A stretch of 22,533 nucleotides of DNA from a bacterium (GTDB taxonomy: Bacteria; UBA8248). Numbering within the stretch: the first letter of the stretch is position 1; every line of letters starts with the position of its first letter. A program made the position numbers and the translations under genes. The notes beneath the pieces are model-generated. The model was not told where the DNA came from, did not search any database, and saw nothing but the letters and a program-made list of their open reading frames with translations. The stretch is taken from NCBI GenBank assembly GCA_965202625.1, contig CBDBBI010000008.1, forward strand, positions 1 to 22,533, given 5' to 3'. Of this stretch, positions 3,574-22,349 are shown piece after piece.

Positions 3574-4038
3574 TTGGAAATCACCCTCACCATCAACGGC
3601 GAGAGCCAGACATACGACGCACCGCCCAGAACCCTTCTGGTTCACCTCCTGCGCGATGAGGCGGGGCTTACGGGTACCCACGTCGCTTGCGAAACCTCGA
3701 TATGCGGGGCCTGCACCGTCCTGATTGACGGCAAGGCGGTGAAAAGCTGCACCCTGCTGGCCGCACAGGCGGACGGCTGTGCGATCACGACCATTGAGGG
3801 GGTGGCCTCGGGCGATGCGCTTCACCCTCTTCAGGAGCAGTTCTGGGAGAAGCACGGCCTTCAGTGCGGCTACTGCACGCCGGGCATGATCATGACGGCA
3901 CACCAGCTCATCGCGTCGAACCCCGACCCGAGCGATGCGGAAATCCGGCACGGCATCGAGGGGAACGTTTGCCGATGCACGGGTTATCAGAACATCGTCG
4001 ACGCCATTTCCGCCGCGGCGGCCCAGATGAGGGAATAA
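3574..4038 (+). CDS. coxS: (2Fe-2S)-binding small subunit of a CO dehydrogenase/xanthine dehydrogenase family enzyme
   Basis: Fe-S motifs [10 protein letters not shown] and QCGYCTPG...[12 protein letters not shown] start with GAGAGGGG RBS. Confidence 0.92.
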
Positions 4039-4041
4039 CAG

Positions 4042-6375
4042 ATGGCACAGGCTCCCAAGTTCATCGGCGCGCCCATCAAGAGACGAGACGATCCGCGTCT
4101 CATTCAGGGCCTCGCCCATTACGTGGACGACTTCAACCCGCCCGGCACCCTGCACATGGCGGTGGTGAGAAGTCCATACGGCCACGCCGCCATACGCTCG
4201 GTCGACGCGTCGAAGGCCCGGGCTGCGGAGGGCGTCGTCGCCGTATATACGTATGAGGACACGAAAGGGATCGGCCCCGTTCCAGTAGGCGGCCTCGTGC
4301 CTGACGCCAAGGTGCCCGAGCAGCCGGTTCTGGCGAACAAGAAGGCGCTCTTCGCCGGAGAGCCCATCGCCGTGGTCGTCGCGCGGACGCGCTATGGTGC
4401 GCGAGACGCCGCGGAACTCGTGGAGGTCGATTGCGATCCGCTCGACGCCGTGGTGGACGTCGAAAGCGCCCTGGACGCCAACGCACCCAGGGTGCACGAG
4501 GCGTATGAGAACAACGAGGCGTTCAAATGGGGGATATCCGGCGGGGACGTGGAAGCCGGCTTCAGGGCGGCCGACGTCATCGTCAAGGAGCGCATCACGA
4601 ACGCCCGCGTCGCTCCGCTGGCACTGGAGCCTCGGGGCGTTCTGGCCCACTACCTGCCGGGCGAGGACAAGATGACGCTGTGGACCTCCACCCAGGTACC
4701 GCACAAGGTGCGCACGCTGGTGGCGGGCCAGATTGGCATGCCGGAGAATCGCATGCGCGTCATCGCACCCGAGGTGGGCGGCGGCTTTGGCAGCAAACTC
4801 AACATCTACCGCGAGGAGGCACTCGCCGCCTACGTCTCGCGCGAACTCGGCTTGCCGATCAAATGGGTGGAGAGCCGCTCAGAGAATTTCATGGCCACCA
4901 TTCACGGGCGCGGCCAGGTGGGCGAAGTGGAGATGGGGCTCAAGAGCGACGGCACCATCACCGCCTTTCGCTACAACGTCCTTGCCGACTGCGGCGCCTA
5001 CTATCAGCTGCTCACCGTGGCCATCTTCACGCTAACGGGCCTCATGCTTCCCGGTCCCTACAAAATCGACAACGTCGAGATGAACGCCACCGGCGTGTTC
5101 ACGAACAAGATAGCGACGGACGCCTACCGGGGCGCCGGCCGTCCCGAGGCCACCTACATTCTCGAACGCATGATGGACGTCGCGGCGAAAAAGCTGGGGA
5201 TGGACCCCGCGGAAATCCGCCGAAGGAATTTTCCGGACAAGGCCGACTTCCCCTTCCCTACGTCCGCCGGCCTCACCTACGACAGCGGGGATTACCACGC
5301 GGCACTCGAGCGCGCACTCGAGGCCGCCGACTACCCCGCCATGCGCGCCCAGCAAGAGGAGGCCCGAAAGGCGGGTCGGCATCTGGGAATCGGCCTTTCC
5401 ACCTACGTCGAGATTTGCGGTATGGGGCCTTCCGCCGCCATGGGCGGCCAGGGATGGGAGAGTGCGCGCGTGCGCGTGGAGCCCACGGGCAAGGCCACCG
5501 TATTCTCCGGCGCCTCGCCCCACGGCCAGGGCCAGCAAACCTCCTTCGCCCAGATCGTGGCCGACGGGCTGGGCATCGGGGTGGACGACGTCACCGTCAT
5601 TCACGGGGACACCGACGTGGTACCCTATGGCGTGGGCACCTTCGGCAGCCGGGGCACGGTGGTGGGCGGCTCGGCGGTCGTCTGCGCGCGCGACAAGGTG
5701 CGCGAGAAGATGGCCAAATTCGCGGCGCTCGAATTCGAGGCGGACGCGAGCGACGTCGCCTTCGAGGGCGGGGAGGTTTTCGTCAAGAGCGCACCCGAGA
5801 AGTCGGCCGCCTTCGCCGACATCGCGCAGCTCGCCTACAGTGCCATCAAACTTCCGGAGAACACCGATCCGGGGCTTGAGGAGACGCACTTCTTCGAGCC
5901 GAGCAACTTCACCTTCCCCTTCGGGGCGCACGTCGTTCTGGCCGAGGTGGATTCAGAGACGGGGGACGTGGAGATTCTCCGATACGTAGCGGTGGACGAC
6001 GTGGGCAACATGATCAACCCGCTGCTCGTCCAGGGCCAGATTCACGGCGGCATCGCCCAGGGGATGGGACAGGCACTGGAAGAGGAGATGCTCTACGGCG
6101 AGGGCGGACAGCCGCTCAACGCATCCCTCATGCACTACGCCCTCCCCAAGGCGAATCGCCTGCCCCGCTTCGAGCTTCTCCACACCACCACGCCGACGGA
6201 CGTCAACCCGCTCGGGGCGAAAGGCGTGGGCGAGGCCGGCACCATCGGCTCCACCCCCGCCGTGGTGAACGCCGTCATCGACGCCCTCGCACCCTTTGGC
6301 GTCACCCACATCGACATGCCCCTGCGCCCCGAGAAGGTATGGCGCGCCATCGCCGGAAAGAAGGGTCTCGCATGA
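4042..6375 (+). CDS. coxL: Molybdopterin-binding large subunit, form II (putative) CoxL-like molybdenum hydroxylase
   Basis: Motifs EVGGGFGSK, AYRGAGRPEA (form II; form I CODH has AYXCSFR), HGQG, GTFGSRG, GQIHGGIAQG and GAKGVGEAG. Confidence 0.9.
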   Translation: MAQAPKFIGAPIKRRDDPRLIQGLAHYVDDFNPPGTLHMAVVRSPYGHAAIRSVDASKARAAEGVVAVYTYEDTKGIGPVPVGGLVPDAKVPEQPVLANKKALFAGEPIAVVVARTRYGARDAAELVEVDCDPLDAVVDVESALDANAPRVHEAYENNEAFKWGISGGDVEAGFRAADVIVKERITNARVAPLALEPRGVLAHYLPGEDKMTLWTSTQVPHKVRTLVAGQIGMPENRMRVIAPEVGGGFGSKLNIYREEALAAYVSRELGLPIKWVESRSENFMATIHGRGQVGEVEMGLKSDGTITAFRYNVLADCGAYYQLLTVAIFTLTGLMLPGPYKIDNVEMNATGVFTNKIATDAYRGAGRPEATYILERMMDVAAKKLGMDPAEIRRRNFPDKADFPFPTSAGLTYDSGDYHAALERALEAADYPAMRAQQEEARKAGRHLGIGLSTYVEICGMGPSAAMGGQGWESARVRVEPTGKATVFSGASPHGQGQQTSFAQIVADGLGIGVDDVTVIHGDTDVVPYGVGTFGSRGTVVGGSAVVCARDKVREKMAKFAALEFEADASDVAFEGGEVFVKSAPEKSAAFADIAQLAYSAIKLPENTDPGLEETHFFEPSNFTFPFGAHVVLAEVDSETGDVEILRYVAVDDVGNMINPLLVQGQIHGGIAQGMGQALEEEMLYGEGGQPLNASLMHYALPKANRLPRFELLHTTTPTDVNPLGAKGVGEAGTIGSTPAVVNAVIDALAPFGVTHIDMPLRPEKVWRAIAGKKGLA

Positions 6376-7247
6376 TTCCAGCCCCTTTCGACTACGTTCG
6401 TCCCAAGACGCTTGCGGGCGCCCTCGCGCGTCTCAAAGAATCCGGAGACGATGCGAAACTCCTCGCCGGCGGCCACAGTCTTCTGCCCGTGATGAAGGCG
6501 AGGCTCGCGCATCCGCGCGTCCTCATCGACGTCGCCCGGGTTGAGGGGCTGTCGGGCATCGCAGAATCAGACGGCACCCTTCGCATCGGGGCGATGACGA
6601 CCCACGCCGAAATCGAGGCGTCACCCGTAGTGGGGGAGAAATGCCGGCTCCTCGCCGAGGCTGCGGGTGCGATTGGCGACGCGCAGGTCAGAAACCGGGG
6701 CACGCTGGGCGGTGCTCTCGCCCATGCCGATCCCGCCGCCGACTACCCGGCGGCCATGCTGGCGAGCGGTGCGGAAATCATCGCGGCGGGCGAGAACGGG
6801 GAGCGCGTCATCGGTGCTGACGACTTCTTCACCGGAACGTATGAAACCGCCCTCGCCCCTGGCGAGATTCTCGTTTCTGTCCGCATACCCGCTTCACCAG
6901 CGCGCAGCGGAGGGGCGTATCTCAAGGCGGCACAGCAGGCCAGCGGCTTCGCCGTCTGCGGCGTGGCGGCCCGGCTCGCACTGGGTGCGGACGGCTCCGT
7001 CTCCTCCCTTCGCGTGGGCGTGACGGGCGTCGCCACTCCCGCCTATCGCGCCAGGAGCGTCGAGAACGCCCTCATCGGCGGGACACCGAGCGCGGAGGAA
7101 ATCCAGGCGGCGGCGCGGACGGCCGGCGAGGGCGTCGAGGCACTCGATGATTTTTACGCCGGAGCGGATTTCAGACGCCACCTTGCCGGAGTCTACGCCG
7201 GGCGCGCCATCTCCAAAGCACTGGCGCGTGCCTCCGGCGGCGAATAG
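6372..7247 (+). CDS. coxM: FAD-binding medium subunit (CoxM/CutM family)
   Basis: Motifs MIPAPFDY, LLAGGHSL, IGAMTTH and IGDAQVRNRGTLGG..AHADPAAD. ATG at 6372 overlaps the coxL stop (ATGA). Confidence 0.9.
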   Translation: MIPAPFDYVRPKTLAGALARLKESGDDAKLLAGGHSLLPVMKARLAHPRVLIDVARVEGLSGIAESDGTLRIGAMTTHAEIEASPVVGEKCRLLAEAAGAIGDAQVRNRGTLGGALAHADPAADYPAAMLASGAEIIAAGENGERVIGADDFFTGTYETALAPGEILVSVRIPASPARSGGAYLKAAQQASGFAVCGVAARLALGADGSVSSLRVGVTGVATPAYRARSVENALIGGTPSAEEIQAAARTAGEGVEALDDFYAGADFRRHLAGVYAGRAISKALARASGGE

Positions 7248-7331
7248 ATACACCCACGTCCCAGCGACGCAATCCCATGCTCTCCATTCGCGGCGCACGG
7301 CGCGCTTTTTCTCTCCTCCAGCGATGCCGGC

Positions 7332-12119: not shown

Positions 12120-12229
12120 ATTACGTTTTAGAAAGACCACATAAAAAACATCAAGACATCCTTGGCACATTCTGGGAGCTTTTCCGTATGAAGTGGCGCA
12201 AAATAGAAGGAAAAATAGCGCATACAGTT

Positions 12230-13201
12230 ATGAGAGCGGGATTTTTCCTCAAGAGATTTCCGTTTATTCTTCTCCTCTTTACGACTGGCTGCGCCACGGT
12301 TGCTCCTTCCACCACTCCGGTGGAAGCTCCCGTATCTAGGGCCGCCCAGAAAAAAGCGCAACAAAAGGCTCTCACTCCCCAGAGAAAGATACTCAAGCGC
12401 AAAATCGCGATTGGCCGCTTCACCAACGAGACGCGTTACGGCAAGACTTTCTTGCGAGACGGGGACACCGACCCTTTAGGAAAGCAAGCTTCCGACATGC
12501 TCGCCAATCGCCTCGTAAGTTCCGGGAAATTTCTGGTTTTTGAGCGTCCGGACCTTGTGAAAATCAAGCGCGAACAAAGCGTCCTAAAAAAATCCAACCT
12601 GATCGGCGTGGACGTCCTTATCTTGGGGTCGGTGACGGAGTTCGGTCGCTCCACCACGGGCCAGTCCGGCTTCTTGAGTGCGACGAAAAAGCAGACTGCG
12701 CAGGCGAAGGTCGAAATACGTATGGTGGACGTACGGACGGGGCACGTGTTTTTCTCCGCCTCCGGCTCAGGAGAGGCAAGTACCGAATCGGGGGAAGTCG
12801 CCGGCTTCGGCAGTCGGGCGGGCTACGACGCCACGCTGAATGACAAGGCGATTGGCGCCGCCATATCCGACTTCCTGAATTCCCTTATCTCGAAAATCGA
12901 TGAGAGAATTTGGAGAACGGACATCCTGCGAATCAAGGGAAGCGAGATCATCATCACTGGCGGCAGACGGCAGGGGATTCAGATCGGTGACGTATTAAAC
13001 GTGATGAGAGAAGGAGAACGGGTGAAGAGCAGGCAAACTGGCTTTGAAATTTCGCTTCCCCCTTCAAAGGTCGGCGAAATACGGATTGTCAGCCTTTTTG
13101 GAGATACCGAAACCAATGAAGGGTCAGTGGGCACAATCTTGTCGGGAACGTTTCCTGGAAGTCGGACGGATGGACTCTTCGTTTCAGAGATAAGGAAATA
13201 A
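12230..13201 (+). CDS. CsgG/HfaB-family outer-membrane lipoprotein with C-terminal FlgT_C-like extension
   Basis: Lipobox FTTGC, then KIAIGRFTNET, LVSSGKFLVFER, LILGSVTEFGR and AKVEIRMVDVRTG. ATG 12230 gives a normal-length signal peptide; the ORF track starts at 12188. Confidence 0.85.
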   Translation: MRAGFFLKRFPFILLLFTTGCATVAPSTTPVEAPVSRAAQKKAQQKALTPQRKILKRKIAIGRFTNETRYGKTFLRDGDTDPLGKQASDMLANRLVSSGKFLVFERPDLVKIKREQSVLKKSNLIGVDVLILGSVTEFGRSTTGQSGFLSATKKQTAQAKVEIRMVDVRTGHVFFSASGSGEASTESGEVAGFGSRAGYDATLNDKAIGAAISDFLNSLISKIDERIWRTDILRIKGSEIIITGGRRQGIQIGDVLNVMREGERVKSRQTGFEISLPPSKVGEIRIVSLFGDTETNEGSVGTILSGTFPGSRTDGLFVSEIRK

Positions 13202-13206
13202 TTTCG

Positions 13207-13536
13207 ATGAAATTATTTGTTGCGGGCTTTCTGCTCATGCTCCTCACCGTTGGTTGCTATCCATCAAGCGAGGTTCGGGTGACGGACAGTAGACCGAGGC
13301 TAGCCATCAAGAACGCCCCAAAGAACGCCATCATCTATGTCGATGGGCTGAATTTGGGATTCGCGAACCAATATAGCGGAGATCAGTCGAGTGACGAGAG
13401 TGGAGAGGTGCGCGTCCTTTTGTTAGAGCCGGGAAGGCACCTGATTGAGGTGAAGAGCGACGGCGAAACATTCCTTTCCGAGGATGTTTTCCTTGGAGAA
13501 GGGACACTGAAAACGCTGACAGTGAAACAGGAGTGA
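13207..13536 (+). CDS. Small lipoprotein with PEGA-like beta domain
   Basis: Lipobox LTVGC, NAIIYVDG and LLLEPGRHLIEV. Confidence 0.7.
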   Translation: MKLFVAGFLLMLLTVGCYPSSEVRVTDSRPRLAIKNAPKNAIIYVDGLNLGFANQYSGDQSSDESGEVRVLLLEPGRHLIEVKSDGETFLSEDVFLGEGTLKTLTVKQE

Positions 13537-13546
13537 GTAAAACGAA

Positions 13547-13921
13547 ATGATCACCAAAAGATTGTCCGTCCTGCTCGTCTCCATCCTGATTTCAGCTTGC
13601 GCGCAGACAAAATACCATTGGGGCGGGTACGAAAACGCTTTATATCAATACTATAAAAGTCCAGCGGAGCTTGGGAGTCTCGCGAAAGAGTTAAGAGGTG
13701 CAATCACCCAGGGGGAAGAGGATGAGAAAGTTCCGCCCGGCCTTTATGCCGAGCTCGGTTATGTGCTCCTCGTCCAAGGAAAGAAGCAGGAAGCCGTCAC
13801 TTACTTTCAAAAAGAAAAGAAATTATGGCCTGAATCAGCCAAATTGATGGATACGATGGTTAAAATGGCGAAAACCTCCGGAGGCGTGAAATCTGCTGGC
13901 TCCAAGGGAGAAAATCGATAA
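13547..13921 (+). CDS. DUF4810-like TPR lipoprotein
   Basis: Lipobox ISAC, YHWGGYE..LY.YYK, VPPGLYAELG and FQKEK.LWPES. Confidence 0.8.
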   Translation: MITKRLSVLLVSILISACAQTKYHWGGYENALYQYYKSPAELGSLAKELRGAITQGEEDEKVPPGLYAELGYVLLVQGKKQEAVTYFQKEKKLWPESAKLMDTMVKMAKTSGGVKSAGSKGENR

Positions 13922-14590
13922 ATGCTATCAAAAACATTCGCATCAGGAGTTCTTGTTACGATATTGCTCGTCTCAGGTTGCGCTGCTCGCCCAAAACCAT
14001 CGGATTTCACCAAATTCCGCAACGAAAATCCCAGATCGATTCTGGTCGTGCCTGCCATCAACAAGGCCGTTGAAGTCAACGCTCCAGATTATTTTCTTTC
14101 AACTATCTCGAAGCCTGTCGCTGAAAGAGGATTTTACGTATTTCCCGTGAACGTAGTGAAACGTGTAATGGAAGACGATGGTCTCGCCGATGCGAATTTG
14201 GTTCACAATGCCGACCCGAAACGCTTGGGAGAGATATTTGACGCCGACGCCATTCTTTACGTCTCGATAGATAGATGGGACGCGCAATATATTGTGTTCT
14301 CCACCCAGGTGACGGTGGAATTCACTTATGTTCTCAAGAGCGGTCGCACCGGCGAAGAGCTGTGGCGACGAACGGCAAAAATGGTGTATTCGCCTCAAAG
14401 CAGCACGAATACGGGCAACCCTCTTGCCACTCTCATCATAATGGCGGCCCAGGCAGCTATTACGAAAGCGGCGCCGAACTATATCCCCTTGACCCAACAA
14501 GCCAACTTTTTAGCAGTCATTGAACCCGGACAAGGATTGCCCGCAGGCCCTTATCGAAAAGATTATCTGAAAGATCAGGACAAATTCTGA
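13922..14590 (+). CDS. DUF799 / GNA1162-family lipoprotein
   Basis: Lipobox VSGC, PRSILVVPAIN, PVAERGFYVFPV, FDADAILY and GLPAGPY. Confidence 0.82.
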   Translation: MLSKTFASGVLVTILLVSGCAARPKPSDFTKFRNENPRSILVVPAINKAVEVNAPDYFLSTISKPVAERGFYVFPVNVVKRVMEDDGLADANLVHNADPKRLGEIFDADAILYVSIDRWDAQYIVFSTQVTVEFTYVLKSGRTGEELWRRTAKMVYSPQSSTNTGNPLATLIIMAAQAAITKAAPNYIPLTQQANFLAVIEPGQGLPAGPYRKDYLKDQDKF

Positions 14591-16031: not shown

Positions 16032-16210
16032 CTCGCCTATCGTCAAGCAACTTGCAGAGCGGCCTTGGCTACCGTGTCGCCTGCCAAACGCAAAACCGCT
16101 CCGCGTGGGCGGAAACAGGCAGGAACCCACCACTGGGCTGTGCGTTGTTTGGCGACGGACCCGGCTTTGTCATTAGGCATGTTTCTTTTTTTCAGGGAGG
16201 AGGTCTCAAC

Positions 16211-16876
16211 ATGAAGAGATGGGGATTTCTGTGCGCAGCGGCTGCTCTCATTTTGGTCTTGTCGGCTCCCCTCATGGCAAGAGCACAAGAGGGGGTAAGT
16301 CAACAAGAGGGGGCGGGGAAATGGTATTGGAAATTCAACGTGGGGATATTGTCGCCAAGAGATTTGGAGAGCACCGCACCACCCTCACCTACCCTCAACG
16401 CGGACATTGATACCGGGGTTTTCGTGAGCACCTCCGTTGGCCGTTCTTTCGGTCGCCTGAGGGGAGAGGTGGAGGTTTTGTATGGAGAAGTCGATTACAC
16501 ACTGGACGCAACTACAAGAGGCGTGAACGGAGACGTCGTCGACATCACTCGCATCGGGGGGGAGTTCGCGGAGTTCGAAGCCAAAATTACGGGGCTGATG
16601 TTCAACGCATGGTTTGACCTGGGCGCGAGCGACTGGGCACTCAACCCCTACGTAGGGGGAGGGGTTGGAGTGATGCATCTCGACGTGCCACGTGGTACCG
16701 ACAGCGGCTTCTCCTGGCAACTCGGTGCGGGCGCAATTTTTCCCATAGGCAATAATCTGGCACTTGACGCCAGCTACCGGTTTCTGAACACCGCCTACGA
16801 ACCTGAAATTTTCTCTATTGTGTATGAGGATATCGAGGCACACGCATTCTTGCTGGGCATCAAGCTCACGTTCTAG
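16211..16876 (+). CDS. Outer-membrane beta-barrel protein (8-stranded OmpA-TM/Opa/Ail-like)
   Basis: GGAGGAGG RBS and a signal peptide ending ARA-Q. Motifs LRGEVE, LMFNAWFD, LNPYVGGGVG, FSWQLGAG and LDASYRF, with a C-terminal Phe (GIKLTF). Confidence 0.88.
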   Translation: MKRWGFLCAAAALILVLSAPLMARAQEGVSQQEGAGKWYWKFNVGILSPRDLESTAPPSPTLNADIDTGVFVSTSVGRSFGRLRGEVEVLYGEVDYTLDATTRGVNGDVVDITRIGGEFAEFEAKITGLMFNAWFDLGASDWALNPYVGGGVGVMHLDVPRGTDSGFSWQLGAGAIFPIGNNLALDASYRFLNTAYEPEIFSIVYEDIEAHAFLLGIKLTF

Positions 16877-16889
16877 TCCGATTCGCACA

Positions 16890-16928
16890 AGGCCGGCCCC
16901 TGCTGATGCGGGGCCGGCTTTTGTTTTT
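16890..16928 (+). terminator. Rho-independent terminator
   Basis: GCCGGCCCC(T)GC-TGAT-GCGGGGCCGGC stem followed by TTTTGTTTTT, right after the OMP stop. Confidence 0.85.
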
Positions 16929-17155
16929 GTGCTCGTTGCCCAAGGGAGTCGCCAACCCCAAAAACACCCAGCGGGCACAGGAATTGCTCGGCAGCGGGGG
17001 CCGGGGAGGCAGCTGGCTTTGCTTAAGAGGTGAGGAGAGATTTCTCCTGAATGGTTCTTGATGGGTTGATTCCAAACGCTTGAGGCGTGGACGTCTGTAG
17101 CAATCTGAACGCGGTTTGCAAGCCCTTTCCCTATAAAACTTCCATCCCGCATCTG

Positions 17156-17374
17156 TTAGTCATTTTTTTCTTTTTCACTTCGCAACGATAATCCTGCGAA
17201 TCGTTCAATGGGAACACAGTATGGAACTGGCTTTACATGCGCAAAACGATTGGCAATATCCTCTATTCTGGCAAGCGATTGTGATGATGTTCTAGCACTC
17301 ATTACACTTCGTTCTATAGCTTCAATCACAGAATCTACCGCACGCACATTTCCATCCTTTTTGTATGTCATCAT
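17156..17374 (-). CDS. Small hypothetical protein coupled to the SDH-type protease
   Basis: ATGA overlap with the upstream gene at 17371-17374, GGGAG RBS, and the same AT-rich composition. Confidence 0.6.
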   Translation of the reverse strand: MMTYKKDGNVRAVDSVIEAIERSVMSARTSSQSLARIEDIANRFAHVKPVPYCVPIERFAGLSLRSEKEKND

Positions 17375-18261
17375 TGACTCCCCGATGTCGGCACATGCCT
17401 GCTATGCAGGTAAAAGCGGTAGTTCAACCGATCAATATAACCTGTCAATCGATCGTTGTACGCTCTTATGGCATGGCTTAAGCTATCCTTTTGAGAATAA
17501 TCATCAATCTCGATGCGCAAGCTGGTTAATTTCTCCACATTCAAGCTTCTTCCGTGCGATTTCCATTTCTTATGATTTGCCAATTCTGTTGCAATTTGCT
17601 CTGCTCTTTCTTCTTTCTCTTGATCAGTTACAGGTTGCCCCTTCTTATTCTCGTTCGTTCGATGTTCTGTCCAATTTCTGAACTTGTACTTGACTAACCA
17701 ATCTTTTAGGAGATCAATAGATAGATCTCTTGCTTGTTCATATAAAGCCAATTGTCCCAAATCCAAACTTTTCAATAAAACAACATCAGCTTCTGCCAGC
17801 TGTCCCTTTCCAGTTATTTCTTCTACCTTATCGAGGTATCCCATAGCTGGCACATAACCTTGTGATTCTGTTGGCAATGGGACTTGAGGATCGACAGGAC
17901 CTAATGTTGAGGCATAATCCATGAAAATCTTATCTCCGGACAAACAAAATATTGTGCCTGCTGAATACGCTATATCTGGGACAATAAAGAAAACCTCTTT
18001 ATAATGATGCCGCAAAACACCAACCATTCTTTCTGTGGTTTCTGCCGAGCCTCCTGCAGTCCTTAAAACAACTGCAATTGCATCTTCTTTCCTTTTAGAT
18101 TTTTGTTTCACTTCCTCGATGAAATTACGAAAAGCCCGGAAATACTCTGGGTAAATGCCCCCATGATAAAAAACAACATCTGCAAGAATTGCCTCTTCGA
18201 GGTGGGTGCAATTAGCATTTACAAGTTCAAGGATGGATTGATCTAGGATATCTGGTGCCAT
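17371..18261 (-). CDS. SDH-family (serine dehydrogenase proteinase; ClpP/crotonase fold) serine protease
   Basis: LRTAGG, IVPDIAYSAGTIFCLSGDKIFM, LGPVDPQ and WKSHGRSL, giving Ser, Asp and His candidates. Confidence 0.8.
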   Translation of the reverse strand: MAPDILDQSILELVNANCTHLEEAILADVVFYHGGIYPEYFRAFRNFIEEVKQKSKRKEDAIAVVLRTAGGSAETTERMVGVLRHHYKEVFFIVPDIAYSAGTIFCLSGDKIFMDYASTLGPVDPQVPLPTESQGYVPAMGYLDKVEEITGKGQLAEADVVLLKSLDLGQLALYEQARDLSIDLLKDWLVKYKFRNWTEHRTNENKKGQPVTDQEKEERAEQIATELANHKKWKSHGRSLNVEKLTSLRIEIDDYSQKDSLSHAIRAYNDRLTGYIDRLNYRFYLHSRHVPTSGSQ

Positions 18262-18463
18262 TTTAAGGACTCATTTTCGCCAACGGGCATTTATCATCAT
18301 CCTCTTTGTATGTATGATTGACTGCAACATCCAAAAAGTCAAGGAAAGAGGAAGAGACGCTACTTTGACTCCGGCTGCTGTTCCTAGAGCACCAAAGCGC
18401 ATATACCGCATTGATCAAGGATTTCCGTCTTCGTCTATAGTTGAAGTTCAGACTTGAACACGC

Positions 18464-19067
18464 TCATTCACACACCACCCCATCCCCGTCGCGCATGAAG
18501 CGGTAGGCCGGAGGCGGACGCCGGCACACCCTCCGCGAAAACCATCTCGGTAGAGGCACATCGGGAGAGCACGCCCTCCAGAGCGTCGGCCTCGCGGCGG
18601 TCGATGGTCAAAGCGTATTTCCGGCGCACGTCCACCACGCGCCGGGCGAACCAGCACTTGTTCATCTTCGGCATTCATTCGGCGGGGTCCTTCCCGCTTT
18701 TCTCGTGGCGGTTCACACGCGGGCCGGCGAGGGTGAGGTTCAGGAGGTCGGCGGCGAAGCGCCGCTTCGCCGCCGCGTCCGCCGCGCAAAACCCGCTGTC
18801 GTGGGCCTCCGAGGTTGCCACAATGTGTTCAATGTCCGTCTGGTGCCTGCTGGAAAACGTCCGCCCGGTGTATGGCCCATACGTCCGGCCCCCAAGACCG
18901 GCAACGATGCGGGCCTCAAGAGATTGCGAATACGGATAGTCGCGCCGCTTGTCGTAGGGTGCGCACCGGTGCTCGGGTGCGACCACGAGGCCGCGCCAGG
19001 TGTCAGCGGCCCACATGGTTGCGGGAGTGAGCGCAACGAGAGCGAAAACGAATATACACAAAATCAC
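18464..19067 (-). pseudogene. Secreted HNH (DUF1524/GmrSD-C-like) nuclease with Excalibur Ca-binding tail, disrupted
   Basis: Signal peptide, then DIEHIVA..EAHDSG and DLLNLTLA...VNR..KSGKDPAE. An in-frame TGA (18677-18675) sits where Trp is expected, and the frame continues MPKMNKCWFA. An out-of-frame tail PAYRFMRDGDGVVCE* lies at 18511-18464. Confidence 0.75.
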
Positions 19068-19097
19068 CCTTCATCCACCCCCTCGGTGCCGACCGCC

Positions 19098-19418
19098 TTA
19101 ACGGTTTCCCTCTTTGCATCGAACGCGGTAATAGATTCGGCTCAGCGCAGATTGGCCAAGTGCCCCCCGAATCACTTTCCGCCCGAAAATCTCGTATCCA
19201 CCGGGGCACAAGTCGTTGTCAGTGAGGTAGAGCCTGAGCCTCGATAGCCTGCTGGATTCAGCGGCGGCCCTCTCCGTCGGAAAAAACGCGCCAGATATCG
19301 CCTCGTACTCAAACGTCCCGTCGTCCAATGCCCTGAATTCGGTCGGGTACCCAGGGGCGTGCGCACTACAACCCATTAATGCCAGGACTGCAAAAACGGC
19401 CAGGCGTTTCGCAAACAT
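19098..19418 (-). CDS. Small lipoprotein, copy 1 (106 aa)
   Basis: GGAGGAGGAG RBS, MFAKRLAVFAVLALMG-C lipoprotein signal, and conserved LCPGGY and VRC cysteines. Confidence 0.85.
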   Translation of the reverse strand: MFAKRLAVFAVLALMGCSAHAPGYPTEFRALDDGTFEYEAISGAFFPTERAAAESSRLSRLRLYLTDNDLCPGGYEIFGRKVIRGALGQSALSRIYYRVRCKEGNR

Positions 19419-19511
19419 CGGCTCCTCCTCCCTCAAAAACTCCGCGCCATCCAGCACACCTCTCCCAACACCTCTGCGCGCGCGGCCACAGCGAACAGGC
19501 TGCCGACCGCC

Positions 19512-19832
19512 TTAACGGTTTCCCTCTTTGCATCGAACGCGGTAAAAGATTCGGCTCAGCGAAGAATGGCCAAGTGCCCCCCGAATCACTTTCCGCCCGG
19601 AAACCTCGTATCCACCGGGGCACAAGTCGTTGTCAGTGAGGTAGAGCCTGAGCCTCGATAGCCTGGTGGATTCAGCGGCGGCACTCTCCAGCGGAAAAAA
19701 CCCGCCAGCTATCGCCTCGTACTGAAACGTCCCGTCGTCCAATGGCTTGAGTTTGGTCCGGCCCCCAGCGGAGTGCGCAGTACAACCCATTAATGCCAGG
19801 AACGCAAAAACGGCCAGGCGTTTCGCAAACAT
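19512..19832 (-). CDS. Small lipoprotein, copy 2 (106 aa)
   Basis: Same architecture as copy 1, with 21 aa differences from it. Confidence 0.85.
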   Translation of the reverse strand: MFAKRLAVFAFLALMGCTAHSAGGRTKLKPLDDGTFQYEAIAGGFFPLESAAAESTRLSRLRLYLTDNDLCPGGYEVSGRKVIRGALGHSSLSRIFYRVRCKEGNR

Positions 19833-19923
19833 CATCTCCTCCCTCAAAAACTCCGCGCCATCCAGCACACCTCTCCCAAAACCTCCGCCCCGCGCGGCCA
19901 CAGCGAACAGGCTGCCGACCGCC

Positions 19924-20244
19924 TTAACGGTTTCCCTCTTTGCATCGAACGCGGTAAAAGATTCGGCTCAGCGAAGAATGGCCAGGTGCCTCCCGAATCA
20001 CTTTCCGCCCGAAAACCTCGTATCCACCGGGGCACAAGTCGTTGTCAGTCAGGTAGAGCTTGAGCCTCGATAGCCTGTTGGCTTCAGCGGCGGCACTCTC
20101 CGGCGGATAGAACCGGCCACCTAGCGCCTCGTACTGAAACGTCCCGTCGTCCAATGGCCTGAATGTGGTATCGTACCCAGGGGTGTGCGCAGTACAACCC
20201 ATTAATGCCAGGACAGCAAAAACGGCCAGGCGTTTCGCAAACAT
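19924..20244 (-). CDS. Small lipoprotein, copy 3 (106 aa)
   Basis: Same architecture as copy 1, with 21 aa differences from it. Confidence 0.85.
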   Translation of the reverse strand: MFAKRLAVFAVLALMGCTAHTPGYDTTFRPLDDGTFQYEALGGRFYPPESAAAEANRLSRLKLYLTDNDLCPGGYEVFGRKVIREAPGHSSLSRIFYRVRCKEGNR

Positions 20245-20258
20245 CGGCTCCTCCTCCC

Positions 20259-20399
20259 TCAAAAAGTCCGCGCCATCCAGCACACCTCTCCCAACACCTC
20301 CGCCCCGCGCGGAGGCGGGATTGGCTCCCACGCCGGATGATCGCTCTCCAGAATCCACCGCCCCTCCACCCACACCGCGCGCTTGACCAGCAAGCCATC
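20259..20399 (-). pseudogene. C-terminal remnant of a peptidase S24 (CI/LexA-like phage repressor) gene
   Basis: Translates DGLLVKRAVWVEGRWILESDHPAWEPIPPPRGAEVLGEVCWMARTF*, showing the VKR, L.SD(N/H)P and G.V.W pattern of S24 C-termini. The HTH and catalytic-Ser regions are missing. It is not in the ORF track. Confidence 0.75.
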
Positions 20400-20453
20400 T
20401 CGGTAGAGGCACACGTCGGCCTTTGTGCTTGTTCGATAGTCGAAGTCCCTCCT

Positions 20454-22349
20454 CTACTTCCCCGGATAGCCCAGGCCGGCGAGGGTCTCGGCGATCTCGG
20501 GCAGGATGGCCGGGTCGTCAATGGTGGCAGGCACCTTGTATTCCTCGCCGTCGGCGATGCGCGACATCGTTCCCCGCAAAATTTTGCCCGAGCGCGTCTT
20601 GGGCAGGCGCTTCACCACCGCCGCCTGACGGAATGCGGCCACGGCGCCGATCTGGCGGCGCACGAGCTGCACCACCTCGCCGACGACCTCCGCATCCTCC
20701 CTCTCAACGCCCGACGTCAAGACCAGAAAACCGAGGGGAAGCTGGCCCTTGAGCTGATCCTTCACTCCGATGACGGCACACTCCGCCACGTCGGGATGCG
20801 AGGTCAAGACCTCCTCCATCGCGCCCGTGGAGAGCCTGTGGCCCGCCACGTTGATGATGTCGTCCGTCCTCGACATCACATAGACGTAGCCCTCCTCGTC
20901 CACGTAGCCGGCATCGCCCGTTTTGTAGAAGCCCGGGTATTCGCTCAGATAGGAATCGACAAAGCGCGCGTCCGCGTTCCAGAGGGTGGGGAGACAACCG
21001 GGCGGCAGGGGCAGTTTGACGCACAGCGCGCCCATCTCGCCCGCACCCAGTGCGCGGCACTCGCTGTCGAGAACCCGAAAATCGTAGCCGGGAACGGGCT
21101 TCGTGGGGGAGCCGTATTTGACGGGCAGATGCTCGATTCCGATGGAGTTCGCCAGCATCGGCCAGCCGCTCTCCGTCTGCCAATAGTGGTCGATGACGGG
21201 AACCCCCAGCTTATCCTCCGCCCACTGCACCGTGTCCGGGTCGGATCGCTCCCCCGCCAGAAAAAGGGTGCGGAAACAGCCGAGGTCGTAATTTCGCATG
21301 AGTTCAGCGTCCGGATCATCGCGCTTGATAGCGCGAAACGCCGTGGGCGCCGTGAACAAAACCTTCACCCCATGCTCGGAGATGACGCGCCAGAAAGCGC
21401 CTGCGTCGGGCGTGCCCACGGGCTTGCCCTCAAACAGGATGGTCGCGCAGCCGTGGAGCAGCGGCGCATACACGATGTAGGAATGCCCCACCACCCAGCC
21501 TACGTCGGACGCCGCCCAGAACACCTCGCCCGGCGCCGCGCCATACACGTTTCGCATCGACCACTTGAGCGCCACCATGTGGCCGCCGTTGTCTCGAACC
21601 ACCCCCTTGGGCTGTCCCGTCGTGCCCGAGGTGTAGAGGATATAAAGGGGGTCCGTGGCGGCGACGGGAACACAGGCCGCAGGCATCGCGCCCCGCAGCG
21701 CATCGCCCCATTCGACGTCGCGGCCCTCGATGAGCTCCGCCTCCGCCTGGGCGCGCTGCAGGATGACGCACTTCTCCGGCTTCACGCTCGAGAGGCTGAT
21801 CGCCTCATCGAGCAGGGGCTTGTAGGCGATGACGCCCGAGGGTTCCACTCCGCACGAGGCGGATATCATGAGTTTCGGCTTTGCATCCTCGATCCGCGCC
21901 GCCAGCTCGTTCGGTGCGAACCCACCGAAGACGACCGAGTGCACCGCGCCGATGCGCGCGCAGGCGAGCATGGAGATCGCCGCCTCGGGTACCATCGGCA
22001 TGTAGATGATGACGCAGTCGCCCTTCTCCACCCCCAGGGATTTGAGCGCGCCCGCGAAATGCGCCACCTCGCGCAGCAACTCCCCATAGGTGAACTTTCG
22101 GGCAGGCGCACCCGTGATGGGGGTGTCGTATATCAGGGCGAGTTGATCCGCGCGTCCCGCCTCGACGTGACGATCCAGTGCGTTGTAGCAGGTGTTGACC
22201 TCGCCTCCTGCGAACCAGCGATAGAAAGGAGGGCGGGAATCATCCAGCACCCTCTCCCATCTCTTGTGCCAGTGCACGTCCTCCGCCGCCTCCGCCCAGA
22301 ACGCCTCCGCGTCCGAGAGAGAGCGGGCGTGAACCTCTGCGTAGCCCAT
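20454..22349 (-). CDS. prpE: Propionyl-CoA synthetase (acetate/propionate-CoA ligase)
   Basis: NTCYNALDRH, YILYTSGTTGQPKG, WAASDVGWVVGHSY, DHYWQTESG, YKTGDAG, NVAGHRLS and LPKTRSGKILR. Confidence 0.88.
   Translation of the reverse strand: MGYAEVHARSLSDAEAFWAEAAEDVHWHKRWERVLDDSRPPFYRWFAGGEVNTCYNALDRHVEAGRADQLALIYDTPITGAPARKFTYGELLREVAHFAGALKSLGVEKGDCVIIYMPMVPEAAISMLACARIGAVHSVVFGGFAPNELAARIEDAKPKLMISASCGVEPSGVIAYKPLLDEAISLSSVKPEKCVILQRAQAEAELIEGRDVEWGDALRGAMPAACVPVAATDPLYILYTSGTTGQPKGVVRDNGGHMVALKWSMRNVYGAAPGEVFWAASDVGWVVGHSYIVYAPLLHGCATILFEGKPVGTPDAGAFWRVISEHGVKVLFTAPTAFRAIKRDDPDAELMRNYDLGCFRTLFLAGERSDPDTVQWAEDKLGVPVIDHYWQTESGWPMLANSIGIEHLPVKYGSPTKPVPGYDFRVLDSECRALGAGEMGALCVKLPLPPGCLPTLWNADARFVDSYLSEYPGFYKTGDAGYVDEEGYVYVMSRTDDIINVAGHRLSTGAMEEVLTSHPDVAECAVIGVKDQLKGQLPLGFLVLTSGVEREDAEVVGEVVQLVRRQIGAVAAFRQAAVVKRLPKTRSGKILRGTMSRIADGEEYKVPATIDDPAILPEIAETLAGLGYPGK

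Follow-up and report, generated by a model that had tools for sequence, protein, structure and literature searches.

What keeps three short lipoprotein genes intact beside decaying neighbours, and why do they differ mostly at codons that change the protein? We addressed this question for a stretch of 22,533 nucleotides (hereafter the window) that makes up the whole of contig CBDBBI010000008.1, here called C8, in the bacterial genome assembly GCA_965202625.1 (GTDB lineage UBA8248). Tandem Repeats Finder identified one tandem array, at 19087-20312, with a period of 412, 3.0 copies, 92% matches and 0% indels, and a repeat search placed three 300-nt copies at 19087, 19501 and 19913. Each unit holds an intact minus-strand open reading frame (ORF) of 106 aa (c1, c2 and c3), with a signal peptide that ends in the lipobox L-M-G-C. 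A first-pass annotation, made from the sequence alone, had described three intact lipoprotein genes of this length in tandem units of about 413 bp, each with its own ribosome-binding site. We found units of 414 and 412 bp and the ribosome-binding site GGGAGGAG in front of each of the three genes. The peptide strings and invariant motifs that it quoted were exact on re-translation, and the decay that it saw in the neighbouring genes is evident as an in-frame TGA in a nuclease gene and as a repressor gene reduced to a 3' remnant. L-M-G-C occupies residues 14-17 in five of five paralogues, three in the window and two on C10, a 2.9-Mb contig of the same genome; the mature lipoprotein has 89 residues.

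Positive selection on the lipoprotein genes

Amino-acid-changing substitutions are in significant excess across the three copies. A codon-by-codon recount gave 21 amino-acid-changing and 1 synonymous-only codon for c1-c2 and 21 and 3 for c1-c3, exactly the earlier hand counts, and 19 and 3 for c2-c3. Nei-Gojobori estimates of the nonsynonymous-to-synonymous rate ratio (omega) were 8.14, 2.50 and 2.14 for these pairs in the same order, with one-sided Fisher p values of 0.007, 0.09 and 0.17, c1-c2 alone being significant singly. A joint maximum likelihood (ML) fit to c1-c3 (GY94, F3x4, star tree) yielded an omega of 3.15 and rejected omega=1 in a likelihood ratio test (LRT; p=0.013). For the mature part of the proteins omega was 6.29 (p=0.0013), and for the signal peptide it was 0.14, which was not significant. 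Across all five genes, pairwise omega exceeded 1 in 10 of 10 pairs (range 1.2-8.1), and the single-ratio model M0 gave an omega of 2.56 and rejected omega=1 (p=0.0009), with an M0 likelihood from iqtree2 that agreed. Comparison of site models M1a and M2a on the five genes gave 2dlnL=44.0, with 35% of sites at an omega of about 9, and none of 45 parametric null replicates rose above 10.1. Variable nucleotides fell on codon positions 1, 2 and 3 in numbers of 16, 15 and 6 among the window copies and 17, 17 and 3 in the C10 pair. A posterior above 0.8 for omega>1 was obtained for 27 sites, one in the signal peptide and 26 in the mature protein. The diversifying selection that the first-pass annotation had proposed, to be checked by dN/dS, is thus upheld by the three-copy ML fit, the five-gene M0 and M1a/M2a models and the null replicates.

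Other sources of this pattern were tried and rejected. A hidden overlapping gene could depress synonymous change, but the five other frames had omega values of 0.5-2.3 and no strong purifying signal. A diversity-generating retroelement was rejected because PF00078 had no matches in the genome (control genomes were matched) and because the changes involve more than one base. Recombination or gene conversion as the cause of the site-model signal was not borne out by the pairwise homoplasy index (PHI; p=0.36-0.52), and the LRT stayed at 44-56 on all four topologies tried. Among the lipoprotein copies, 28% of informative site pairs are incompatible, and therefore repeated change or some exchange does occur.

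Selected residues and the predicted fold

We modelled the lipoprotein with AF2 from a 71-sequence alignment (mean pLDDT 85.2, pTM 0.70). The model contains a signal helix (residues 3-14), strands at 27-30, 36-42, 75-84 and 93-101, and a helix at 51-67, a predicted beta-beta-alpha-beta-beta fold. Residues C17, E54, R57, C71, R80, Y97 and C101 are invariant in the alignment. The first-pass annotation had supposed a disulfide-stabilised scaffold; the small scaffold and two invariant cysteines in the mature protein (C71 and C101) are present, and the disulfide itself is putative. It had also placed the changes just after the lipidated cysteine and at residues 41-50, which agrees with the concentration of selected sites in the N-terminal arm and two loops of the AF2 model. 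Coil or loops account for 17 of these 26 sites in the mature protein (residues 18, 21-26, 32, 44, 46, 48, 86-89, 91 and 92), strands for eight and the helix for one. Positive selection is focused on three segments: residues 18-29, the arm after the lipidated cysteine; residues 41-48, in the beta2-alpha loop; and residues 86-96, in the beta3-beta4 hairpin loop. The core, the helix and the two cysteines are kept unchanged. The selected sites coincide with the positions that vary and are prone to indels across the wider family (mean entropy 2.76 versus 2.03, p=0.002), whose largest indel hot spot follows residue 88. Judging from the order of the hairpins and the helix, that is, from secondary structure only, the three variable segments may lie at one end of the sheet, and the invariant turn between strands 1 and 2, C71 and C101 at the other. 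Mean-field direct coupling analysis of 149 sequences was dominated by gap artefacts and was not relied on.

Two haplotypes of one locus

Most of the window matches positions 1039325-1063431 of C10 at 99.4-99.8% identity, and for six of the nine small contigs of the assembly (C1, C2, C5, C7, C8 and C9) C10 hits of at least 95% identity extend over more than half of the length. The window is therefore a further strain haplotype of a locus on the chromosome, with three lipoprotein genes in C8 and two, again in tandem, in C10. Nine flanking genes pooled between C8 and C10 had proportions of synonymous and nonsynonymous differences (pS and pN) of 0.0069 and 0.0016, and the adjacent nuclease gene shows no difference over its first 315 nt, whereas the lipoproteins are 64-74% identical across the haplotypes, differing at 29-36% of residues. 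Between c1 and its positional counterpart in C10, dS was 0.126 and dN was 0.22. In the tree, the copies of each haplotype cluster together (bootstrap 100 and 97), and therefore duplication or homogenisation took place within each lineage; c1-c3 differ from one another and from both C10 copies. In an alignment of the C8 and C10 units, conserved nucleotide blocks alternate with variable blocks, the latter having been defined after inspection of the data.

Contigs from sequencing runs hold parts of the window in all four runs listed, which come from two studies and are sponge metagenomes or labelled 'organism A'. The unitig word depth of the C8-specific segment was about 2, and that of shared neighbouring segments in the same runs was about 9-10; there are hints here that C8 is a minority haplotype. 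The run contigs are short and none spans the array; the c2-specific part has little exact cover, and a 198-nt piece of c1 is matched exactly. One 198-nt run contig (window 19636-19833) joins a c3-type N-terminal variable block to a c2-type middle block. Such a hybrid could be a genuine recombinant allele, or it could have arisen artefactually in a low-depth de Bruijn assembly over a 34-nt identical stretch.

Origin from a Mu-like prophage

The minus strand of C10 carries, in order, a 313-aa repressor (Peptidase_S24, phrog_4), the two lipoprotein genes, the first of which is 14 nt away from the repressor stop, and a signal-peptide nuclease-like gene. Divergent from the repressor is a 417-aa stump with a MuA DNA-binding domain (HTH_Tnp_Mu_2, phrog_310). 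Repressor and stump are the left end of a decayed Mu-like prophage. In the window, 20262-20408 matches residues 265-313 of the C10 repressor at 92% and the rest of the repressor is gone; the array there follows an acyl-CoA synthetase gene on the same strand. The seemingly intergenic part of each repeat unit is itself a copy of the last repressor codons, the TGA and the ribosome-binding site. The two loci thus share one family and one unit of repressor tail plus gene, present twice with an intact repressor in C10 and three times with a deleted repressor in the window. Only distant S24 proteins were found when the repressor was searched in 60 related genomes, and therefore there is no intact sister prophage among them.

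In our reading, a Mu-like prophage carried a lipoprotein gene 14 nt after its repressor, so placed that the product would be made in lysogens. The prophage then decayed and the lipoprotein genes were kept, and unequal crossing-over between units of repressor tail, ribosome-binding site and gene changed the copy number, which is now three in the window and two in C10. C10 also has a fourth, more diverged copy of the repressor tail (74% identity) beside the acyl-CoA synthetase gene, at 1061175-1061303 (about 7176-7304 of the extracted locus L007). Recombination between this copy and the true tail would give the arrangement of the window.

A family of unnamed small lipoproteins

A HMMER profile search returned at least 307 cluster representatives at E<=0.001, 41 of them at E<=1e-10, nearly all of about 100 aa. 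A lipobox-like motif was present in 131 of 150 family representatives, and the only source name of family members was 'hypothetical protein'. When 71 members were compared with Pfam, there were two stray hits, in one member each. Narrower searches returned little: a five-sequence profile had no matches in genome, viral and metagenome collections, a word-index protein search found only the copies of this genome, tblastn against phage and plasmid records gave no matches, single-protein scans of viral sets returned only the query contigs, and a sequence search of the PDB gave hits only at E>1. The ESM Atlas yielded unnamed clusters only, one of them labelled viral, which we treat as a lead only. 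Among relatives, the narrow profile matched none of 40 genomes and the family profile matched 1 of 50 genomes of the phylum; among relatives the family is sporadic.

Four viral contigs (L021-L024) carry family members. In L021 a gap of 15 nt separates the member from the phrog_4 CI-type repressor gene in front of it, which diverges from CII-like and primase genes. This repressor has no detectable similarity to that of C10 (BLASTP E=0.13), and therefore the order of repressor and lipoprotein recurs in an unrelated lysogeny module. A siphovirus tail module in L022 contains two diverged tandem members (3672-4291) in antisense orientation, flanked by the genes for a minor tail protein (phrog_290) and the tape measure; a single member occupies this position in L024, and the member in L023 is near an Ant anti-repressor gene. 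Ten further genome or metagenome loci have one member each. Their neighbours include mobile-element genes, namely an integrase (L033), an HNH gene (L032) and methylase and Vsr-like ORFs named from their translations (L034), and other member loci adjoin housekeeping genes such as those for a short-chain dehydrogenase and citrate synthase. In L029 (3509-4294), a signal-peptide gene of the SNase nuclease family ends 7 nt before the member.

Surroundings of the array

The features of the array and its flanks are collected in Table 1. The slot between the outer-membrane protein (OMP) beta-barrel gene and the nuclease differs by haplotype. It corresponds to L007 2392-3225 in C10 and to 695-3760 of L008, the locus on a third contig, C3, and contains an SDH ClpP-like protease gene in C8, a DUF5131 gene (PADLOC PDC-M41B) in C10 and a type II restriction-modification pair in C3. 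The OMP barrel gene is 99.9% identical between C8 and C10 and about 86% identical in C3 (window 16070-17006 versus C3 3800-4715); outside this gene, C3 hardly matches C10. In the nuclease gene, the in-frame TGA (18675-18677) falls on a conserved Trp position of the family consensus and the frame runs for 68 more codons. The C3 nuclease (L008 63-680) has the same TGA as C8, and the C10 gene has a fusion after about residue 105. Farther away, window 12188-14590 is a block of lower GC content with a lipoprotein trio (CsgG-like, DUF4810 and GNA1162-like).

Table 1 Positions of the lipoprotein genes, their spacers and flanking features in the window
Feature	Position	Strand	Make-up and basis
Lipoprotein gene c1	19098..19418	-	Last of the array; ORF and translation; family profile match E=4e-29
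Lipoprotein gene c2	19512..19832	-	ORF and translation, family profile match; second ATG one codon upstream
Lipoprotein gene c3	19924..20244	-	First of the array; ORF and translation, family profile match
93-nt spacer	19419..19511	-	Last repressor codons, TGA stop and GGGAGGAG ribosome-binding site; repeat search, unit alignment with C10
91-nt spacer	19833..19923	-	Same make-up as the 93-nt spacer (repressor tail, TGA, ribosome-binding site)
S24/CI-type repressor 3'-end remnant and ribosome-binding site	20245..20414	-	Upstream of c3; 51-aa ORF
DUF1524 (PF07510) secreted nuclease pseudogene	18468..19067	-	30 nt downstream of c1; Pfam GmrSD_C E=5.5e-6
Acyl-CoA synthetase gene	20454..22349	-	Upstream of the array; Pfam AMP-binding, ACAS_N; 99.4% nucleotide identity to the C10 copy
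Haplotype-specific slot	17087..18752		Holds SDH ClpP-like protease gene 17371-18261

Candidate functions of the array

As putative functions, the first-pass annotation had named phage-receptor exclusion, toxin immunity and interaction with host surfaces. Of these candidates, the context favours exclusion, with a prophage remnant at this locus and family members in viral contigs. Our preferred reading, by analogy and at a confidence that falls a little short of even, is that the array encodes phage-exclusion lipoproteins with several specificities. Each paralogue, presumably located at the envelope, would bind its own variant of some component of an infecting phage, or block a receptor, and the array as a whole would act against several phages, in the way that Ltp, Llp and Cor exclude phages as single proteins. 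The cellular location, expression, binding partner and exclusion function of the lipoproteins in this scheme are all putative. Genes for phage exclusion classically occupy the positions after the repressor gene and inside the tail module. Exclusion fits best because the family occupies both of these slots (the tail-module position in the relatives L022 and L024, the window copies standing after the repressor tail), because Ltp and Llp are precedents and because in other haplotypes defence genes occupy the neighbouring slot.

A number of observations weigh against phage exclusion. Compared with the Pfam, NCBIfam, PHROG and PADLOC libraries, the copies matched no family, and so no Llp, Cor or Ltp model in those libraries. 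A Foldseek search against the PDB and BFVD gave no match at E<=0.001; the best PDB match was to ribosomal protein S6 permutants (TM 0.44) and the best viral match was to an uncharacterised protein (98 aa) from Stenotrophomonas phage IME-SM1 (TM 0.59-0.63, E=0.013). Several family members are chromosomal with no phage gene seen within 4 kb, as in Dongia and a Tectimicrobiota metagenome-assembled genome, and 12 of 20 neighbour ORFs scanned had no Pfam hit; one batch of ten gave few hits, probably on account of wrong frames. The ML tests used five sequences and a purpose-written implementation. Diversifying selection is not an obvious expectation for a receptor blocker whose host target evolves slowly. 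No sigma-70-type promoter was found in the repeat units, and no significant RNA structure in the 93-nt and 91-nt spacers, for which reasons the array is likely to be co-transcribed. The acyl-CoA synthetase gene upstream on the same strand belongs to the chromosomal flank, and read-through from it might transcribe the array. Finally, conserved and variable blocks with changes in copy number are, in the excerpt of PMC9484751, equally typical of tandem immunity-gene arrays.

This last point leads to the main rival reading, which we consider unlikely, yet worth serious attention: that the genes encode phage-borne immunity or orphan-immunity lipoproteins against competitor toxins acting in the periplasm, such as type VI effectors or bacteriocins, with one toxin variant per paralogue. 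The array resembles those of EsaG and TipC in its blocks of near-identical nucleotides, its variable regions and its copy number of three versus two, with a possible hybrid allele in a run contig. An omega above 1 is expected of proteins that track polymorphic toxins, and the sponge metagenomes that hold this DNA represent a dense community. Against it, neither the window (22.5 kb) nor the sister locus (10 kb) showed a toxin or secretion-system gene, a genome-wide search for type VI and toxin genes not having been made, and the family's positions after a repressor and in tail modules are those of exclusion genes; PADLOC and Pfam gave no hint either way on an immunity role. The provenance of the runs that hold the DNA, only sponge metagenomes and 'organism A' (four of the four listed), would suit surface or envelope lipoproteins of a sponge-associated bacterium that act on the animal host and are diversified under host recognition, and lipoprotein families of host-associated bacteria are reportedly targets of selection and recombination. 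We nevertheless hold this to be quite improbable: the family is found mostly in free-living-type genomes and phage contigs, the surface exposure that it calls for is putative, and the gene arrived with a prophage.

The nuclease gene next to c1 raises the further idea that the lipoproteins are its partners, as inhibitors or anchors. A signal-peptide DUF1524 nuclease gene starts directly after the array and an SNase gene adjoins the member in L029, which puts two different nuclease folds beside one lipoprotein family. These are 2 of 15 non-redundant loci (own genome counted once), and the adjacency in them speaks against phage exclusion. Against a partnership, however, the member has no nuclease for a neighbour in the other 13. 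All three haplotypes have a broken nuclease, whereas all five lipoprotein genes are intact, and its first 315 nt do not vary with the lipoproteins. Its family occurs in 5 of 40 related genomes, none of which has the lipoprotein family. Co-folding the mature lipoprotein with the nuclease core gave no answer (score 0.00), which weighs neither for nor against binding. Taken together, we regard a partnership as very improbable. A further alternative is an artefact, either an assembly chimera of strain alleles or neutral drift after duplication. C8 belongs to the nine small contigs, of which six are covered by C10 over more than half of their length, and the run contigs neither bridge the array nor give the c2-specific part much exact cover. 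But neutral drift would bring omega near 1, which the ML tests reject, and three intact frames stand beside two decayed genes. A chimera made by stacking the sister alleles could not yield c1-c3, since these differ from each other and from both sister copies, and haplotype-specific segments, including the exact 198-nt piece of c1, are present in run contigs. An artefact is the least credible of these explanations, and we consider it extremely improbable.

Implications

Beyond the function of single paralogues, the array may be a domesticated, heritable envelope repertoire, in which a gene of a dead prophage was kept and duplicated and three loops were diversified on a fixed scaffold. We offer this as a rather unlikely but consequential possibility; if it were true, strains of one population would carry different allele sets, like immune-receptor or immunity-gene repertoires. 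If the lipoproteins recognise phage proteins directly, the array would represent multi-allelic exclusion, with a small number of loop residues setting specificity and unequal crossing-over enlarging it. Infection-blocking small phage lipoproteins have been described as single genes in a small set of model phages; here one natural population combines tandem expansion, strain differences in copy number and alleles, and supported positive selection. The short list of residues and the compact protein could serve as a test bed for how specificity in envelope-level exclusion or immunity is coded and evolves. Even if the function is ordinary, an unnamed family of at least 307 clusters joins the catalogue of prophage cargo genes, in lysogeny and tail modules alike.

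Comparison with known systems

Cor of phages phi80, N15 and T1 is a receptor-blocking lipoprotein. Llp of T5, a lipoprotein of 61 residues with one disulfide, acts at the outer membrane and binds the host receptor FhuA, and Llp/Cor-type genes sit beside tail and receptor-binding genes; arrays or positive selection are not reported in the excerpt of PMC9586334 that describes them. Like Llp and Cor, the proteins studied here are very small lipobox lipoproteins with relatives, in L022 and L024, inside tail modules. Unlike them, they form a tandem array under selection, and they share neither sequence nor a Foldseek PDB fold match with them. Our literature search turned up no description of exclusion lipoproteins in tandem arrays under positive selection. 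In the EsaG and TipC arrays, according to the part of PMC9484751 available, conserved blocks flank variable regions, copy number varies as these blocks recombine, and a lipoprotein signal is present in TipC. The present array, like these and the tandem lpl lipoproteins of S. aureus, is a string of non-identical paralogues with conserved blocks around variable regions. It differs in that EsaG and TipC belong to type VII loci of Firmicutes and stand beside toxins, whereas here the genes stand in a prophage remnant and PHI is not significant among the five copies.

For phage exclusion, a further precedent is Ltp, a superinfection-exclusion lipoprotein of the Streptococcus thermophilus phage TP-J34. 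The available portion of PMC3952083 describes Ltp as a lysogeny-module gene transcribed while the phage is a prophage, and reports that eight residue changes alter which phages are excluded. Ltp has no sequence relation to the lipoproteins described here, which matched no Pfam or PHROG family. It is a single gene of a Gram-positive host whose product has two helix-rich repeat domains, whereas the protein here is an 89-residue mature lipoprotein with a predicted beta-beta-alpha-beta-beta fold, encoded in a tandem array. Like Ltp, the lipoprotein genes have a place in a lysogeny module; here the gene directly follows a repressor in the same orientation, at 14 nt in C10 and at 15 nt in L021, and the change between its alleles is driven by selection.

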